DNA of 11,443 bases from Candidatus Heimdallarchaeota archaeon (GTDB taxonomy: Archaea > Asgardarchaeota > Heimdallarchaeia > Hodarchaeales > Hodarchaeaceae). The notes below the pieces were generated by a model, which was not told the DNA's origin, did no database searches, and saw only the letters and a program-made list of their open reading frames with translations. The stretch lies in NCBI GenBank assembly GCA_019057635.1, contig DXJL01000022.1, positions 1-11,443 of the forward strand, read 5' to 3'. A program made the position numbers and the translations under genes. Of this stretch, positions 3,494 to 11,279 are shown piece after piece. How positions within the stretch are numbered: position 1 is the first letter of the stretch; each line of letters starts with the position of its first letter.

Positions 3494-4287
3494 GCCCTCC
3501 AAGGGGATATGCTTGAATTAGGGACTCCACTAGTAATTGCGATAAATGCCTCTTCAAGTGTACGTGTTTGAGTCTGATCTTTAATATCTGATACTGTTCC
3601 TATCGCTATTAACTGTCCATTATGGATGATACCAATCCGGTCACATAATTCTTCAACAACTGGAAGTCTGTGACTACTGATAAGAATAGTTTTTCCACGG
3701 TTTGACATATCTTTAACTAATTGTTTAACAGTACGAGCAGCTCGTGGATCAAGACCTGCAGTGGGTTCATCTAAAAAGATTACCTCAGGATCATGGATAA
3801 TTGCAGATGCTAATAACACTTTTTGACGCATACCTGTACTAAATCCTTCAATAAGATCATTTTTTCTATCTAAAAGATCAAAAAAGCTCAATAATTCATT
3901 TATACGTGGTTTTAACTTTGTTTTGTTAATGCCATAAAGAGAACCCATGAGCTCGAGAAACTCATAAGCAGAGAGTTTCGCATAGACTCCAGGAGATTCG
4001 GCAAGGAGGCCAGATATTGATTTTACTTGTTGAGCATCATTGAGGATATCAAATCCATTTATATTTGCTGTACCATTTGTTGGTTTAATAAGTCCATTTA
4101 ACAATCGAATTGTGGTTGTTTTTCCAGCACCATTAGGTCCAAGTAACCCAAAGGTTTCTCCTTGGTTAATAGTTAAGCATAGATCGTCAACCGCTTTAAT
4201 TTGTCCTTTCGAGTAAAATTTAGAAAGGTTTTTTATTTGTATTACTCCATTAGATCGATTTAATGTTTTTTCAGTTTTCATTAACAT
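3490..4287 (-). CDS. ABC transporter ATP-binding protein (ABC-2/DrrA-like multidrug family)
   Basis: Walker A GPNGAGKTT, signature FSTGMRQK, Walker B IFLDEPTAGLDP, H-loop ISSH, and C-terminal TLEEAF. AGGTGA RBS at 4289-4294 favours the second ATG at 4281. Confidence 0.95.
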   Translation of the reverse strand: MLMKTEKTLNRSNGVIQIKNLSKFYSKGQIKAVDDLCLTINQGETFGLLGPNGAGKTTTIRLLNGLIKPTNGTANINGFDILNDAQQVKSISGLLAESPGVYAKLSAYEFLELMGSLYGINKTKLKPRINELLSFFDLLDRKNDLIEGFSTGMRQKVLLASAIIHDPEVIFLDEPTAGLDPRAARTVKQLVKDMSNRGKTILISSHRLPVVEELCDRIGIIHNGQLIAIGTVSDIKDQTQTRTLEEAFIAITSGVPNSSISPWRA

Positions 4288-4306
4288 GTCACCTTTGAAT
4301 AATTGG

Positions 4307-4699
4307 TTATTTTAATCGTGTCCCACAAGTAGCGCAAAAAAAATCTGATGTATCGACCAATGAACCACAGTTGACACAAAATTCGTAGTTAGTTTGAGAA
4401 TGCTTTTCCCAAGTGGGTTGTAACGACTGAGATGGTCGTGAAACGTATCTAACTTGTTTTTCTGTATCAGGACTGGTTTGTTTTGATTCTAGAAATACAA
4501 TCACAGGAATAAAGGACACAATGAAGATAATAATTCCTAGAACAACAAAAACCATATTGAAAGACATTCCGTTTAAGAATGGAAATCCAACTAAGACTAA
4601 CATCAGAAATAACAGAAGAAAGCTGCTAACAATGAAAGCAACTAAATTTGGTTTCTGACCTTTCTGACGAGGTGGGATATAAGGGATGATAGGTATCAT
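4307..4699 (-). CDS. Two-TM membrane protein with C-terminal zinc ribbon
   Basis: Two hydrophobic helices (about aa 19-43 and 47-70), a polar linker, then FCVNCG-x7-FCATCG. GGTG lies upstream of the ATG, and the gene ends 19 nt before the ATPase, so it is probably the first gene of the operon. Confidence 0.8.
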   Translation of the reverse strand: MIPIIPYIPPRQKGQKPNLVAFIVSSFLLLFLMLVLVGFPFLNGMSFNMVFVVLGIIIFIVSFIPVIVFLESKQTSPDTEKQVRYVSRPSQSLQPTWEKHSQTNYEFCVNCGSLVDTSDFFCATCGTRLK

Positions 4700-5037
4700 T
4701 AATTTTACACCAATTTTATTTTTGTAGGTTGATGATTGACATTATTCGTCAATTACTATTTTTTGGTAACATGTTTAAATATTCTTCGATTGTGGAAAAA
4801 ATCCCTGATATGAACTGTCACCTCTCAATTGTCGAAAAATTAAGGATTAGTTCTGTTATCTTCAAGAAATTTGTACCTTTCACTCAAACAGTTATACTCT
4901 TGTAAAAAATGATTAGTAAATTGCATAAATGATTCAATCCTATGATATTTAGATATTTCATCTCACCAGAAGGTTTAAAAAGAAATTGGTAATTAACTAA
5001 TTATAGTAATACTACATTCGAAAGGAATGGACTTCAA
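4700..5037. promoter_or_regulatory. Divergent promoter region with candidate archaeal TATA boxes
   Basis: 338 bp AT-rich gap between divergent operons. TTTAAA near 4775 serves the - strand operon, and CCAGAAGG-TTTAAAAA at about 4966-4981 (BRE/TATA-like) serves the + strand operon. Confidence 0.45.
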
Positions 5038-5574
5038 GTGAAAAAGCTCTCAGATAGTGAAAAGATAGTGATTCGAGAGATATTTAGAAGCCCATCCATT
5101 ACATTGAATGAATGTGCAGAAGTGCTAGAGAACGCTGAAAATCGCCAAGTACGTAAGCCTAACAAAGCTGTTGACTTACGATCTGTATCTAAATTTAAAT
5201 CTGTTGGGTATAAAAAGATTAGAGAAGGATTGTTAAAACTAGCCAATGATTTTCGGCTAGATCTTTCACTACAGGCTGACACTGCTGAAGGTAAAAAGGA
5301 AGAAGAACAAGTAAACGAGATATTGCTCAGGAATGGAATTCTGAAAGGATTTGATTTTCGTGTCAATGCTATGGTATACCTATTCATTAATCTACAAGAA
5401 CAATCCATTCTTCCTTGGCAAGCACATCATTGTCGACCTCTATGCAAGACGGATTGTACAAATATTCTCGACACTCTTCGTTCTGAACATGGTTTACCTT
5501 CTCCAAATATCCAATTAGATGTTATAGACCTTATAGAAATTACTATAAAAGAAATTATTGCTCGTGAAACGTGA
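5038..5574 (+). CDS. Putative archaeal HTH transcriptional regulator with C-terminal His/Cys metal-binding motif
   Basis: GTG start. N-terminus LSDSEKIVIREIFRSPSITLNECAEVL is HTH-like. C-terminus GILKGFD...VYLF...PWQAHHCRPLCKTDCTNIL resembles an archaeal family with a W-x2-H...C-x3-C-x3-C cluster. Confidence 0.55.
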   Translation: MKKLSDSEKIVIREIFRSPSITLNECAEVLENAENRQVRKPNKAVDLRSVSKFKSVGYKKIREGLLKLANDFRLDLSLQADTAEGKKEEEQVNEILLRNGILKGFDFRVNAMVYLFINLQEQSILPWQAHHCRPLCKTDCTNILDTLRSEHGLPSPNIQLDVIDLIEITIKEIIARET

Positions 5575-6339
5575 TTGATAATGAATGATCTACCTCATAT
5601 AATCGGTTCTGATATCCCATCTTCTCCACCGGAGAAACCACGTATTATACGCCCTAGCAGAAATTTTCTGTACAAAAATTATTTTCTGTTTCTTTTGACA
5701 GCTGTAATATTCATTGGGGCAATGATTGTATTTTTAATAGTTGTTAATACATTAATTGGAAGTTCTAGAGGGCCAACAGTCCAACAACAGTTAACCGAGA
5801 TGTATGTCCTCCTTTCGGTAGGATTTTCTGTTTTATGGTTAATAGCGTTTGTCATTTATGGAATTGGCATGTATCTCTACGTTAGACAAATGGTTTTCAT
5901 TGTACATGGGAGTGAGATTGTTGTGAAAAAAGGATTAATTAATAAAACCGAGAAACATGTTCCTTACAGGACTGTAACTCATATTAGTATGCGATCAGGG
6001 CCTTTTGATCGGTTATTCAATATTGGTACAATTGAAATCCAAACAGCAGGTGGAGCTAGTTCTTCTTTGGAGTCAATGGCTGAAGAAAAATTAGAAGGGA
6101 TAATTATCTATCGTGAGGTCCGTGATTATATCTTAACCCAACTACGTTTGTTTCAACAACAAGAAAAGGAAGACTCAACCGTTGATAATAGCGTACAAGA
6201 CTCATCCTCAAGTTCGAGAGAGGACGCTCTTTTAGGATCCCTTCAGGATATTAAGACTCTCTTATCTGAGAAATTCCAAGCCATGGAAGATAAATTAGGA
6301 GAGATTTCTGAGGAAATGAAGAATCTCGGACAGCACTAA
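5575..6339 (+). CDS. Membrane protein with bacterial PH domain (bPH_2/DUF304, YdbS-like) and C-terminal coiled coil
   Basis: Two TM helices, then EIVVKKGLINKTEKHVPYRTVTHISMRSGPFDRLFNIGTIEIQTAGG (typical bPH_2), an acidic Ser-rich linker and the heptad tail LLGSLQDIKTLL. It abuts the upstream gene, and the start may be ATG 5581. Confidence 0.85.
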   Translation: MIMNDLPHIIGSDIPSSPPEKPRIIRPSRNFLYKNYFLFLLTAVIFIGAMIVFLIVVNTLIGSSRGPTVQQQLTEMYVLLSVGFSVLWLIAFVIYGIGMYLYVRQMVFIVHGSEIVVKKGLINKTEKHVPYRTVTHISMRSGPFDRLFNIGTIEIQTAGGASSSLESMAEEKLEGIIIYREVRDYILTQLRLFQQQEKEDSTVDNSVQDSSSSSREDALLGSLQDIKTLLSEKFQAMEDKLGEISEEMKNLGQH

Positions 6340-6346
6340 TTGTAAT

Positions 6347-8197
6347 TCAGTGGATGATCATTTTTAGGGGGAATAGGAGCTCAAAGATATTTCCTTTAGG
6401 ATCTAATGGAGTAATTTTCAAAGTTCCACCGTAATACTTCATGATAACAGAGGCAAGAGCAATAGGAAGATAATATCCTCTAGACTCCCATTTCTCTGTA
6501 ATAGATGAAATAAGTTTAGCACTGAGATGTTGAGAAATTGGTTGCGAATTGGTATCATGGATGCGGATACAAAGATTCGAGGAGAGAATCGAGGCATCGA
6601 TTAGAATGGGAGGTTCTGAATGATCAGGATCTAGCATACTAGAACCAGTACTCACAATAAATCGTAATAATTCATAAAACACATCAAATAAATTACTATC
6701 CGCCTTTAGTACAATACTTGAAAGAAATGACTCTTGTATTTCAATTTGCTTGAGATGAGAATACGGTCTAAATTTATTTATAGCCTCATTAATTAAGCTG
6801 AGAACTTTTAGTTTTTCGGTCTTACCTGGGGTTTCTGATTGAAGTACAGCAAAAATTTTATTCACTACTTCAATATTTCGCGAAGAATAATTGACAATCT
6901 TTCTTAATTGTTTGACCATTTCTTGATCGAATTCTTTCTTAGAATGATGTTTTTGTTCCAACATATCCAAGCCAAAAAGGATTTTCTGTAGATCATTATT
7001 CAGGAAATGAGTTAACATGGCATAATAGAGCTCTTCTTCAAGTTTGATCTTTTGGATTTGCTTTTCTGATTTTCTAAGCTTTTGTTCCACTTTTTTCAGT
7101 TTGGTGATATCAGTGAAGACTACTAAAACACCCTTAAAATCATCTTTCGTGGAATGAATAGGGGTTGCTGTAACTATAATCGGTATTCGTTTGTTATTTT
7201 TTCCTAATACTACTGTCTCATATCTACTACTGTAGCCTTCCTTTCGTTTAGCTGTCTCACTTCTAACCATTTCCAAAGATTCAGGTGAAATAAAATCTGA
7301 CCAGTGCCTACCGATTAATTCTTCTTCTTCGTATCCTAATAGGCTCGTTACTTGGGGATTAGCGAAGGTGAAGAAACCTTGGGGATCCTCTAATACAACC
7401 CCTTCCTCCATTTTATTAATGAGCATTTGATACTTTTCCTTAGCTTCCTGTAATGCAATTTCAGCTCTTCTTCGTTCTGAAATCTCACGAATGATCCCTC
7501 TGAATCCATGTTTTCTTCCTGAAGAGTCAAGTATGAGAGATATAGACACTTCTGAATAGCCCATTGCGCCATCTTTCCTAATAAATTCCAGTTCAAACTC
7601 TTTTACAGGCTTTCCTGTTACGTACACGTCATTAAATGCTTTTAATACCTGTATAGAGACTGATTCACTACAGTATTGTCTATAATTCATCCCCATGATT
7701 TCATTTTCAGTGTATCCCAAAATCTTGAGCAAATTTTTATTGAAAAAGGTAAAATTACCAGCTAGATCTACCTCATAATAGCTATCTTCTATATTTTCGA
7801 GAAGTGTTCGATATTTTTCCTCTGATGCTCGTAATGTTTCTTCTACTCTTTTTTGCTCTGTGATATCTCGGACAATACCTTGAACAACCTTTTCCCCGCT
7901 AATCTCAAATATTCTTGAGGAGACTTCTGCAGAAAATACTTCACCACCCTTTTTCAGAAAATCAATCTCAAAATCTACAAAACCCATTTTTGTGATCGTA
8001 TCAAAAGCTCGTTTCGATTCTTCAAGAAATTCCGGAGGATGAAGATCAGAAATTTTTAAATTAAAAATCTCTGCTTTTGTGTATCCAAAAAGCTCTAATC
8101 CCTTTTGGTCAATATCAAGGATTTTTCCTTGAAGGTCATGAAAGAAAATGGCATAATTACTAAAATGGACTTGGTTACTATGCTTCTGTTCACTCAC
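6347..8197 (-). CDS. Cytoplasmic triple PAS/PAC sensor with degenerate histidine kinase-like C-terminus
   Basis: Three PAS/PAC repeats ending IVRDITEQK, IIREISERR and VFTDITKLK. H-box-like THFLNNDLQKI, followed by a HATPase-like fold with degenerate N/G1/G2 boxes. No TM segments. Confidence 0.85.
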   Translation of the reverse strand: MSEQKHSNQVHFSNYAIFFHDLQGKILDIDQKGLELFGYTKAEIFNLKISDLHPPEFLEESKRAFDTITKMGFVDFEIDFLKKGGEVFSAEVSSRIFEISGEKVVQGIVRDITEQKRVEETLRASEEKYRTLLENIEDSYYEVDLAGNFTFFNKNLLKILGYTENEIMGMNYRQYCSESVSIQVLKAFNDVYVTGKPVKEFELEFIRKDGAMGYSEVSISLILDSSGRKHGFRGIIREISERRRAEIALQEAKEKYQMLINKMEEGVVLEDPQGFFTFANPQVTSLLGYEEEELIGRHWSDFISPESLEMVRSETAKRKEGYSSRYETVVLGKNNKRIPIIVTATPIHSTKDDFKGVLVVFTDITKLKKVEQKLRKSEKQIQKIKLEEELYYAMLTHFLNNDLQKILFGLDMLEQKHHSKKEFDQEMVKQLRKIVNYSSRNIEVVNKIFAVLQSETPGKTEKLKVLSLINEAINKFRPYSHLKQIEIQESFLSSIVLKADSNLFDVFYELLRFIVSTGSSMLDPDHSEPPILIDASILSSNLCIRIHDTNSQPISQHLSAKLISSITEKWESRGYYLPIALASVIMKYYGGTLKITPLDPKGNIFELLFPLKMIIH

Positions 8198-8780: not shown

Positions 8781-10550
8781 TTGAATCGATCTCTTAGAAG
8801 TGGTATACCCTTGAAAACCTCAAATAACATACCAGATAAACCAGAAAAGGATGAATTTGGACTTGATTTTATCCGAAAGATAATTGTTGAGGATATAAGA
8901 ACTAATAAAAATGAAGGTCGAGTCCATACGCGTTTTCCTCCTGAACCAAATGGTTGGATGCACATTGGACACGCTATGGCTATCTATTTAAGCTATAGTG
9001 TCGCTCAAGAATATAATGGCCTTTTTAACTTAAGGTTTGACGATACCGATCCTTCCAAAGAAAGTATGGACTATGTAGAGGCAATTAAAGAGGATGTTCA
9101 ATGGTTAGGGGCTGAATGGGAGGATCGATTATACTTCGCTTCAGATTATTTTGAGAAACTGTATGAATTTGCAGTTGCACTGATTAAGGCTGGTAAAGCG
9201 TTCATCTGTGATTTGAGTGTTGAGGAGATAAGAGAACAAAGAGGAACTCTAACAGAACCAGGAGTAAACAGTCCTTACCGAAATAGATCAGCTGAAGAAA
9301 ACTTTGATTTATTTAAGCGGATGCGTGAAGGTGAATTTGAGGATGGTTCGAAAGTCCTACGCGCTAAAATTGATATGACTTCTCCAAATCTTCTAATGCG
9401 TGATCCGATCATGTACCGGATCAAAAGGGTAAGTCATTATAGAACTGGAACAGAGTGGATAATTTACCCTAGTTATGATTTTACTCATGGGGAATCTGAT
9501 GCAATTGAGGGAATAACTCATTCTCTCTGTTCACTAGAGTTTGAAACCCATAGGCCTTTATATGACTGGTTTATAGATGAATTGCTAGCATTAGGAACAT
9601 TAAAACATAAACCTCGGCAAATTGAATTTTCTCGCTTGAATGTAACATATACTATAACGAGTAAACGTAGATTACTAGAATTAGTTAAGGGAGAATATGT
9701 TTCTGGATGGGATGATCCACGAATGCCAACAATAGCTGGGATGCGGAAACGAGGATTCCCAGCAAGTGCGATTAGAACTTTTCTTGGTAGAGTGGGTGTT
9801 ACAAAGAGAGAAAAAAATATCGATGTTGGTTTATTGGAAGCTTGCGTGCGTGATGAATTAGATAAGGAAGCTAATCGTGTATTGGCTGTCTTAAATCCCT
9901 TACGAGTTGTTATTACGAACTATCCAGAAGACCAAGTAGAACATCTAGAAATACCAAATCATCCAAAAGATGAATCTAGAGGTACCCGTAAAGTACCGTT
10001 TTCACGAGTGCTTTATATAGAGCAAGAAGATTTTATGGAAGACCCTCCTAAAAAATTCTATCGCTTAACGCCGGGTAGAGAGGTTCGATTACGGAATGCA
10101 TACTTTATTACATGTACTGATGTCAAGAAAGATGAGTCTGGGAAAATACTTGAAGTTCATTGTACATATGATCCCAACACAAGAGGAGGATCATCTCCAG
10201 ATGGGAGAAAAGTAAAAGCAACCATACATTGGCTTTCCCGAGATCATGCATTGAAAGCGGAAATTCGCTTATACGATCGATTATTCAATCGAAAAGATCC
10301 CTCAGGTTTACCTGATTATAATTCTGATTCGTTGAAATCGATAACTGGATATGTAGAACCCAGTTTAAAAGAAGCTAAACCAGCTACCCACTATCAATTT
10401 GAACGAGTAGGATATTTCTTTACTGATCCAGAGGAATTTACCAAGAAAAAACTAGTTATCAACCGGACGATTACATTACGTGATACTTGGGCAAGAATCA
10501 AGAAACAACTTCCTCAACCAAAGAAAAAGAAGCAGAAAAAAAAGAAATAA
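8781..10550 (+). CDS. glnS: Glutamine--tRNA ligase (GlnRS), bacterial type
   Basis: [11 protein letters not shown]-x2-[108 protein letters not shown] and NRTITLRD are all colinear with E. coli GlnS. The start is uncertain (TTG 8781 or TTG 8811). Confidence 0.96.
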
Positions 10551-10587: not shown

Positions 10588-10986
10588 TCAGTTGTTAGGA
10601 GTTATTTCCAAATACACACGTTCTGTTTCTTTTCTCCAAAATGCTAATTTCGTGAAAGCGATGAGAATTTTCACAAGGAATGTTTTTGCTCCTTCCATTG
10701 TTTCAAAGGCAAATTGCTCCTCTTCTTTAGCTAGCACTCGTGCCTTTACTTCAATTTCAGGGCCTTTTAGCTTGCCACGTATTGTACATGGGGCAATTTT
10801 TGCATCCGAATTATTCCTTAAACGTTTTATTTTGTAGGAATTCTTTCTGGTTGATACATATAAGCGATCATTATTCCTCACAAATTCTACTGGAGTAGCT
10901 ACACCTTTTCCACTTTTATAGTACGTTGTTAAACTGATCGTTCGATGTCCTGCTAAATAATCAAATGGGTGTGTATTTTGATTCAT
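10588..10986 (-). CDS. PPOX-class (pyridoxamine 5'-phosphate oxidase-like) probable F420-dependent oxidoreductase, Rv2061-like
   Basis: ISLTTYYKSGKGVATPVEF...LYVST...SYKIKRLRNNSDAKIAPCTIRGKLKG matches the family pattern LTT-x2-K-x-G-x2-V-x-TPV...K-x-KR-x-RNN...APC-x2-RG. Confidence 0.85.
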   Translation of the reverse strand: MNQNTHPFDYLAGHRTISLTTYYKSGKGVATPVEFVRNNDRLYVSTRKNSYKIKRLRNNSDAKIAPCTIRGKLKGPEIEVKARVLAKEEEQFAFETMEGAKTFLVKILIAFTKLAFWRKETERVYLEITPNN

Positions 10987-11091: not shown

Positions 11092-11163
11092 CAGCCCCAT
11101 CCAGATTCGAACTGGAGTCTTCAGATTCAGAGCCTGAGGTGCTAACCACTACACTATGGGGCT
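11092..11163 (-). tRNA. tRNA-Gln (anticodon CUG), no intron, CCA not encoded
   Basis: Reverse complement: AGCCCCA TA GTGT AGTGGTTA GCAC C TCAGG CT-CTG-AA TCTGA AGAC TCCAG TTCGAAT CTGGA TGGGGCT G. It folds as a full cloverleaf. Confidence 0.96.
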
Positions 11164-11204
11164 TGACTGTAATTTATATGCATTTAATGTATGTAGAGAA
11201 GAAA

Positions 11205-11279
11205 TGGCAGCCCCGTCCAGATTCGAACTGGAGTCGTGAGGGTCAAAGCCTCATATGATAGCCTCTACACCACGGGGCT
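11205..11279 (-). tRNA. tRNA-Gln (anticodon UUG), no intron, CCA encoded
   Basis: Reverse complement: AGCCCCG TG GTGT AGAGGCTA TCAT A TGAGG CT-TTG-AC CCTCA CGAC TCCAG TTCGAAT CTGGA CGGGGCT G CCA. It folds as a full cloverleaf. Confidence 0.97.

Follow-up and report, generated by a model that had tools for sequence, protein, structure and literature searches.

Introduction

Two routes to glutaminyl-tRNA provide the closest points of comparison for the locus described here. The direct route is best known from Escherichia coli, where glutaminyl-tRNA synthetase (GlnRS) recognizes tRNA-Gln through an identity set listed in Table 1 of PMC9976931 as G73, U1-A72, G2-C71, G3-C70, G10, U34, U35, G36, A37, and U38. 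The indirect route of archaea runs through a nondiscriminating glutamyl-tRNA synthetase (ND-GluRS) and GatDE; in the passages of PMC9499178 that deal with it, archaeal tRNA-Gln is said normally to carry A73 (citing Marck and Grosjean 2002), and GatDE is said to recognize tRNA-Gln through its D-loop and A1:U72. The same passages state that all known archaea lack GlnRS and ascribe this absence to the incompatibility of their tRNA-Gln (citing Tumbula et al. 2000). We analyzed an 11,443-nt stretch of DNA from Candidatus Heimdallarchaeota archaeon (here called the window) that makes up the entire contig DXJL01000022.1 of assembly GCA_019057635.1, in which a bacterial-type GlnRS gene, glnS, adjoins two tRNA-Gln genes that join an archaeal tRNA body to G73 and A37. 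Comparison with related genomes shows that these two genes belong to one of two paralogous tRNA-Gln sets, which we call set 1 (G73 and A37, as in the window) and set 2 (A73 and G37).

The locus resembles both of these routes in part. As in E. coli, the enzyme is of the bacterial type and both tRNAs have G73, G2-C71, G10, Y34-U35-G36, and A37; unlike in E. coli, the host is archaeal and possesses GatDE in addition. As in the archaeal indirect route, the set-1 tRNAs combine A1-U72 with an archaeal body, and the genome encodes GatD and GatE; the set differs from the tRNA-Gln of that route in having G73 for A73, A37 for G37, and an altered base in the D-loop. Whereas PMC9499178 describes archaea as free of GlnRS, we found the enzyme in 40 of 301 Asgard genomes, in three families. 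Another likeness is to Helicobacter pylori, with its GluRS1 and GluRS2, and to Acidithiobacillus ferrooxidans, in which, as summarized in PMC9976931 (citing Salazar et al. 2003), two charging routes coexist and a few identity nucleotides partition the tRNAs. In those bacteria it is the enzyme that was duplicated, whereas here it is the tRNA set, the second enzyme having apparently come by horizontal transfer. A transfer of GlnRS to Archaea was asserted in passing in a 2022 paper (PMC8879553), and a 2024 preprint names GlnRS as a neighbor of cox genes in Hodarchaeales and Kariarchaeaceae (bioRxiv 10.1101/2024.07.04.601786). Within the papers that we searched, the GlnRS of Hodarchaeales was mentioned only in passing, and nothing was found on tRNA-Gln sets.

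The two tRNA-Gln genes and glnS in the window

According to ARAGORN, the window has two tRNA genes and no more; they lie on the minus strand and have the anticodons CUG and UUG. We scored them with the Rfam tRNA model (RF00005; gathering score, 29 bits) and with a covariance model, R1, that was built from six tRNA-Gln genes. The two genes and the adjoining synthetase gene are as follows.

11092..11163, minus strand: tRNA-Gln(CUG), set 1 (ARAGORN; Rfam RF00005, 63.8 bits; R1, 94.8 bits)
11205..11279 (body 11208-11279), minus strand: tRNA-Gln(UUG), set 1 (ARAGORN; Rfam RF00005, 56.9 bits; R1, 88.3 bits)
8781..10550, plus strand: glnS, bacterial-type glutamine--tRNA ligase (TTG start, 589 amino acids; TIGR00440, 692.3 bits)

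Both tRNA genes score above the Rfam gathering score and have a YUG anticodon. Read on the minus strand, each begins with 5' AGCCCC and has the pairs A1-U72, G2-C71, and C3-G70, together with G10, G15, and G12:C23; CCA is encoded in the UUG gene (11205-11207) and not in the CUG gene. The discriminator is G73 in both (11092 in the CUG gene, 11208 in the UUG gene), A37 lies at 11127 and 11243, respectively, and the base at position 38 differs, being A for CUG and C for UUG. All of the tRNA coordinates that an initial annotation of this DNA had given proved correct when checked with ARAGORN, Rfam, and a minus-strand reading. A third diagnostic position was absent from that annotation, namely, the D-loop base before A21, which is U in both genes (11144 in the CUG gene, 11260 in the UUG gene). 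When the archaeal features named in PMC9499178 were compared, both genes had the archaeal first pair, A1-U72, and lacked the other two, with G73 in place of A73 and G12:C23 in place of C12:G23; the source gives C12:G23 as the archaeal and G12:C23 as the eukaryotic state of this pair. Of the elements that GatDE reads, the set-1 genes keep A1-U72 and, in the D-loop, have U before A21, where set 2 has C or A. The annotation had also stated that GatDE reads A1-U72 and that G73 and A37 are identity elements for E. coli GlnRS; the former is stated in PMC9499178, and the latter is found in Table 1 of PMC9976931.

The product of glnS exceeds the curated cut-off of TIGR00440 (NCBIfam glnS; 425.8 bits) and contains the class I catalytic domain (tRNA-synt_1c, PF00749) and two C-terminal domains (PF03950 and PF20974), the score, catalytic domain, and anticodon-binding domains all being those expected of a GlnRS. 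Its copy in the protein collection (P0001; 579 amino acids) covers 98% of the open reading frame (ORF). Among solved relatives, the best scores were obtained with the GlnRS of Pseudomonas aeruginosa (5bnz; 678 bits) and E. coli (655 bits), against 427 bits for the human enzyme and 413 bits for that of yeast. The protein is 64 to 65% identical to GlnRS of Chloroflexi, Deltaproteobacteria, Calditrichaeota, and Firmicutes, and the source names of the closest GlnRS proteins are consistent with an origin in Hodarchaeales. Aligned to the E. coli enzyme, it retains L136, R341, R402, R410, R412, and Q517 and differs in having T at D235 and Y at K401. The gene and the tRNA pair are about 600 to 700 nt apart and in convergent orientation.

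Two paralogous tRNA-Gln sets in the family of the window genome

We next compared the window genome (G000) and its family (f1, Hodarchaeales) with the rest of the class, which includes the families f3 and f4. A search with R1 against 41 genomes of the class yielded 107 matches at 86 loci, representing most matches of at least about 53 bits. Of these, 83 were Gln genes that have a YUG anticodon and begin with A1, A1 being itself a selection criterion. Among the other 24, five were Gln-bodied with a CUA anticodon, three were Gln-like with odd loops, and one was a UUG gene that begins with C1; the rest were Glu, Asp, Gly, and further tRNAs.

All 12 GlnRS-bearing genomes of f1 carry set 1, with a CUG gene and a UUG gene that have G73 and A37. 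The set lies 34 to 743 nt from glnS in 11 of the 12 genomes and 117 kb from it in G015. Because G010 and G015, both of which carry set 1, are single-contig genomes, the arrangement of glnS and set 1 is chromosomal. In 8 of the 12 genomes, set 2 is present elsewhere (14 genes in total, most of them with introns in the anticodon loop or T loop). The two sets have the acceptor stem AGCCCCG in common, as well as a large part of the T arm, and across 25 set-1 and 21 set-2 genes of f1, just 3 of 73 model columns were without any common base: the base before A21 (U in set 1 versus C or A in set 2), position 37 (A versus G), and position 73 (G versus A). The set-1 states at these three positions were invariant in 25 of 25 genes. 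The archaeal descent of the window tRNAs, which the initial annotation had proposed, is borne out by A1-U72 and by acceptor and T stems that match those of the canonical paralogues.

A tree was constructed from 58 tRNA genes of f1, f2, and f5 using 65 columns, with the anticodon loop and position 73 left out. In this tree, the set-1 UUG genes joined the set-2 UUG genes in a group of 21 rows (Shimodaira-Hasegawa-like approximate likelihood ratio test [SH-aLRT], 100), of which they formed a subgroup (support, 90), while the set-1 CUG genes fell into two other groups, apart from the UUG genes. The CUA genes grouped with the set-2 CUG genes. This topology suggests that each isoacceptor was duplicated and acquired G73 and A37 separately, in agreement with the parallel change in both isoacceptors that had been annotated from the window.

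GlnRS across Asgard archaea

GlnRS scored over the cut-off in 40 of the 301 Asgard genomes searched, all 40 of which belong to three families of one class: f1 (11 of 20 genomes, plus the window genome), f3 (21 of 29), and f4 (7 of 11, with 2 more giving partial matches). None was found in 27 other Asgard families (for example, 0 of 76 genomes in f11, 0 of 68 in f14, and 0 of 7 in f27). In a FastTree phylogeny of 162 GlnRS rows, f1, f3 plus f4 (support, 100), and 27 close bacterial sequences made up one clade of 54 rows (support, 99), and representatives with N-terminal extensions, taken as eukaryotic, lay far from it. This placement, together with the TIGR00440 score and the scores of the solved relatives, upholds the annotation of the adjoining enzyme as bacterial type. 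With respect to one versus two transfers into Heimdallarchaeia, the f1, f3 plus f4, and bacterial clades formed a three-way split without internal order. The GlnRS proteins that accompany set 1 are 65 to 86% identical.

We considered and set aside two features of the enzyme as signs of adaptation or distinctiveness. The position of E. coli D235 is T, S, or N in f1 and V or N in f3 and f4; as evidence of coadaptation this is weak, since 64 bacterial relatives vary there too (D in 34, N in 19, I in 6, V in 3, A in 1, and H in 1). A lysine-rich C-terminal tail is likewise present in bacterial relatives, the median number of K plus R residues after the LRD-W motif being 5.5 in 42 proteins of the Hodarchaeales clade versus 4 in 55 others. 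A sister group that keeps D235 (P0045 to P0050) has source names from Hod-, Heimdall-, or Thorarchaeota; when contigs were searched with P0048, the relatives were 59 to 72% identical, and 78 of the 80 loci kept were bacterial.

A bacterial-type GlnRS was also seen directly downstream of an archaeal tRNA-Gln(CUG) gene with A1-U72 on two contigs (3.7 kb and 29 kb) of Thermoplasmata/Methanomassiliicoccales metagenome-assembled genomes (MAGs), L217 (tRNA, 459-534; GlnRS, 1048-2685) and L227 (tRNA, 3803-3876; GlnRS, 4001-5647). These contigs, as named, may represent a second, independent archaeal acquisition of GlnRS with a linked tRNA.

G73 and A37 in genomes with and without GlnRS

Nine genomes of the class in which no GlnRS was found (G001, G006, G007, G013, G017, G022, G023, G026, and G030) had tRNA-Gln genes with A73 and G37 only (14 genes). 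There were two exceptions among class genomes without GlnRS found: G021, in which a G73/A37 pair abuts the contig end, and G029, which has the pattern of f4 and is 83% complete. Both could be explained by assembly gaps. Outside the class, we drew on a sample of 71 genomes and, from 98 listed matches, retrieved 40 regions, chosen as top-scoring matches of GlnRS-free families. These regions contained 39 Gln genes from 28 genomes, with A73 in 38 and G73 in 1, and with G37 in 32 and A37 in 7; G73 and A37 occurred together in none of the 39. The recurrence of this pair in 12 of 12 GlnRS-bearing f1 genomes goes beyond chance.

These counts bear on several statements of the initial annotation. Its statement that A73 is the archaeal norm agrees with 38 of these 39 genes as well as with the passage in PMC9499178, and its companion statement for G37 holds for 32 of the genes and fails for the 7 with A37. 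The tabulation of glnS-free genomes that it called for gave A73 and G37 only within the class (apart from the two exceptions above), with A37 appearing outside. The idea that G73 and A37 are special to glnS-bearing genomes stands within f1 for G73 and for the combination of the two, and it does not stand for A37 alone: A37 is common in f14, which is free of GlnRS, so that its distribution does not allow A37 by itself to be called an adaptation to GlnRS. As judged from these gene counts, G73, and G73 with A37, appear to track glnS only in f1.

The 12:23 pair followed a different pattern. G12:C23 (D stem GUGU/NCAY) was present in most of the Asgard tRNA-Gln genes retrieved, and C12:G23 or another pair was present in a few (G028, G038, and several f4 genes); the departure from the C12:G23 rule of PMC9499178 therefore spans much of the phylum.

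Among the glnS-bearing relatives outside f1, genomes of the f3 genus g8 have near glnS a Gln-like tRNA with A1-U72, A73, and a six-base anticodon loop, TTTAGG or TTTCGG (L088:21-92 in G032, L093:962-1033 in G036, and L098:21-92 in G040). The f4 genomes G033 and G037 have a CUG gene with A37, a UUG gene with G37, and an intron-bearing UUG gene with A37 near glnS.

The indirect route and a CUA-anticodon relative of set 2

In the class sample, GatD scored over the cut-off in 36 of 41 genomes and GatE in 37 of 41. Both were found in the window genome (contig C183) and in 23 of the 24 GlnRS-bearing genomes, with neither found in G040. GatE scores were 333 to 352 bits in G000, G002, G018, G020, G004, G005, and G006 versus 533 to 578 bits in the rest of f1. 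The sole GatE of G000 (locus C183:32189-35372; 334 bits) is a divergent paralogue. GatB_N was the only one of three domains that Pfam detected in the GatE of G000 and G020 and in the second copy of G019; GatB_N, GAD, and a GatB_Yqey tail were all detected in the GatE of G010, G012, and G026 and in the first copy of G019. Both the divergent and the canonical forms are thus present in G019. Separately, f4 genomes have two GatD/GatE pairs (for example, at G033:C20:30306-33664 and G037:C54:67246-70580), the second of which shares a contig with glnS in G033 and G037.

No YUG gene with A73 and G37 was found in G000, G002, G018, or G020. Each of these four genomes has instead a single gene with a set-2 body and A73, whose loop reads UUCUAU-intron-N, corresponding to a CUA anticodon and U37. 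In the window genome it is as follows.

G000 C20:11132-11240, minus strand: CUA-anticodon Gln-type tRNA (AGCCCCG acceptor, A1-U72, A73, intron of about 36 nt)

Homologues of this gene were found at L023 (G002), L027 (G004), L029 (G005), L057 (G018), and L060 (G020). Six genomes share the CUA loop and its pyrimidine at position 37, and the homologue in G001, G019, and G021 reads UUCUGG, corresponding to CUG and G37. In the G000 gene, splicing after position 37 at a canonical bulge-helix-bulge would fit the 4-bp helix TTCT/AGAA. When the entire G000 assembly was searched with a loose pattern, Gln-type acceptor halves turned up at three loci only, the two window genes and the CUA gene. With set 2 reduced to the CUA gene, no ordinary decoder of CAA or CAG was therefore found in the assembly besides the window genes.

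The CUA gene might act as an amber suppressor, be a relic, or serve some nontranslational purpose. Reassignment of UAG by this tRNA was rejected, as nothing pointed to a change of code: in G000, TAG shows no depletion among stop codons, ending 294 of 1,225 open frames of at least 300 codons, and the median run-on of frames after TAG, TAA, and TGA is 10, 10, and 9 codons, respectively. A further candidate, a tRNA-Gln(ttg) called by ARAGORN in intron mode at C20:58726-58840, was also rejected; its structure is poor (Rfam, 29.5 bits), and it is better read as a UGG arm with an insert in the D region.

Interpretation of the two sets

From the gene anatomy, linkage, paralogy, diagnostic positions, and genome distribution described above, we infer which enzyme charges each set and what part G73 and A37 play. 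The explanation that we consider probable is that the duplicated, glnS-linked set 1 serves GlnRS and that set 2 serves ND-GluRS and GatDE. The Hodarchaeales family would have acquired a bacterial-type GlnRS, and ordinary archaeal tRNA-Gln genes would have been duplicated to give a lineage-specific set linked to glnS that kept its archaeal body (A1-U72 and C3-G70). This set would then have gained G73 and A37, which are determinants for bacterial GlnRS, and U before A21 in the D-loop, which GatDE reads, and so have become a substrate for GlnRS in the direct route. Set 2 would still serve the indirect route in most of the family; in the window genome and its nearest relatives, it would have shrunk to the single CUA gene, with GatE being a divergent paralogue. 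The window genes themselves were most likely shaped for direct charging by GlnRS, and perhaps also for escape from the indirect route. More tentatively, it is conceivable that Hodarchaeales possess two insulated routes to Gln-tRNA (GlnRS with G73, A37, and U20a; ND-GluRS and GatDE with A73 and G37), forming a natural orthogonal pair that arose by tRNA duplication after horizontal transfer, and that the window lineage is finishing a switch to the direct route, with the conserved CUA relic left of its native set and a GatE without a recognizable tRNA-binding tail.

Several observations weigh against the assignment of set 1 to GlnRS. Three of the 10 bacterial determinants are lacking in the window tRNAs: the 1-72 pair is reversed (A1-U72, still a weak pair), the 3-70 pair is C-G, and A or C occupies position 38. 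In f3 and f4, the tRNA-Gln genes linked to glnS carry A73, in most cases together with A37; the CUG gene of the f3 genus g8 combines G73 with G37; and the CUG genes paired with GlnRS on the two Thermoplasmata/Methanomassiliicoccales contigs have A73 and G37. Outside the class, the one G73 among the 39 genes is in G089, of the GlnRS-free family f11, and A37 occurs without GlnRS in all six f14 genes retrieved (one per genome, six genomes) and in one f27 gene. The tRNA genes are convergent with glnS in f1 and therefore are not cotranscribed with it. The window genome has GatD and an intact GatE reading frame, so set 1 may be served by the indirect route, and the lack of set 2 in a MAG assembly of 3.19 Mb in 214 contigs that is 91.6% complete is not proof of its absence. 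Finally, the tRNA tree is short (65 columns), and constraints on the anticodon stem could mimic ancestry in it. The counterexamples with A37 and A73 indicate that identity rules probably differ between GlnRS-bearing lineages.

Some of these observations would be expected if G73, A37, and the D-loop U were quirks of a duplicated pair that drifted or hitchhiked beside glnS, without influence on the choice of synthetase. The frequency of A37 in f14, the A73 (and in some cases G37) at the GlnRS loci of f3, f4, and Thermoplasmata, the lack of an operon with glnS in f1, and the variability of the D235 position in bacterial relatives all fit such a history. However, all three diagnostic positions lie within elements that are read by GlnRS or GatDE, their states are fixed in 25 of 25 set-1 genes although the GlnRS proteins are only 65 to 86% identical, they appear to have been gained separately in two isoacceptors, and G73 is rare elsewhere (1 of 39); we regard neutral drift as unlikely. 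A related possibility is that the changes act as antideterminants, keeping ND-GluRS and GatDE off set 1 or GlnRS off set 2, with GlnRS accepting either discriminator. It would account for the restriction of G73 to f1, where two full sets coexist, for a diagnostic position in the D-loop that GatDE reads, and for the A73 tRNAs linked to GlnRS in f3, f4, and Thermoplasmata. Set 1 has nevertheless kept A1-U72, the main element for GatDE, and insulation overlaps with, and is compatible with, a set 1 that serves GlnRS; as a separate explanation, we consider it quite improbable.

The initial annotation had read the window differently, proposing that the native tRNA-Gln genes were themselves retuned at positions 73 and 37 for the acquired GlnRS; under this reading, GlnRS would have replaced the indirect route. 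The window genome taken alone is consistent with this, as no other ordinary tRNA-Gln gene was found in it and G73 and A37 are bacterial determinants, but the genomes with two sets contradict it: a native set with A73 and G37 is kept in 8 of 12 GlnRS-bearing relatives, and it is a duplicate set that changed. Moreover, the set-1 UUG genes nest beside the set-2 UUG genes as paralogues, GatD and GatE are retained, and the window genome still has a relic of set 2 in its CUA gene. We consider the retuning of native genes very improbable; the observation from which it was drawn is confirmed, and its interpretation is partly supported and is amended here to a duplicated second set. We give almost no credence to an artefact, in which the contig was misbinned or the tRNAs arrived from bacteria together with glnS. 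It is true that the window is a whole MAG contig of just 11.4 kb, but its GC content (35.2%) is close to that of the genome (36.2%), the same arrangement is found in the single-contig genomes G010 and G015 and in 12 of 12 relatives, and the tRNAs have A1-U72 and stems in common with archaeal paralogues, whereas bacterial tRNA-Gln has U1-A72.

GlnRS is fixed in three families that belong to the class of archaea closest to eukaryotes. Under the assignment of set 1 to GlnRS, f1 would offer a concrete way around the tRNA barrier, in which gene duplication was followed by changes at three identity positions in the copies, which stayed at the synthetase locus. The old argument about the absence of GlnRS from archaea thereby becomes directly testable with defined transcripts and enzymes. 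The family f1 also displays what appear to be stages in the replacement of one route by another, with genomes that have the indirect route only, both together, or a dominant direct route, and the two sets with their enzymes may constitute a ready-made orthogonal pair for genetic-code engineering. The division into set 1 and set 2 would be a case of tRNA identity coevolving with a transferred synthetase.

Neighboring genes

Between glnS and the tRNA genes, the window contains one further ORF.

10588..10986, minus strand: small PPOX-class F420-dependent oxidoreductase ORF (TIGR03666, 107 bits, cut-off 84.9; PF01243)

This ORF probably lies outside the GlnRS/tRNA system. The gap between glnS and the tRNA genes is 589 to 622 nt in the clade of the window genome versus 34 to 93 nt in other f1 genomes, and the ORF, which was read in the window genome alone, may account for the wider gap of that clade. 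On the other side, glnS adjoins a gene (6347-8197, minus strand) whose 616-amino-acid product has three PAS (sensory box) domains and matches sensor histidine kinase families weakly and in part.

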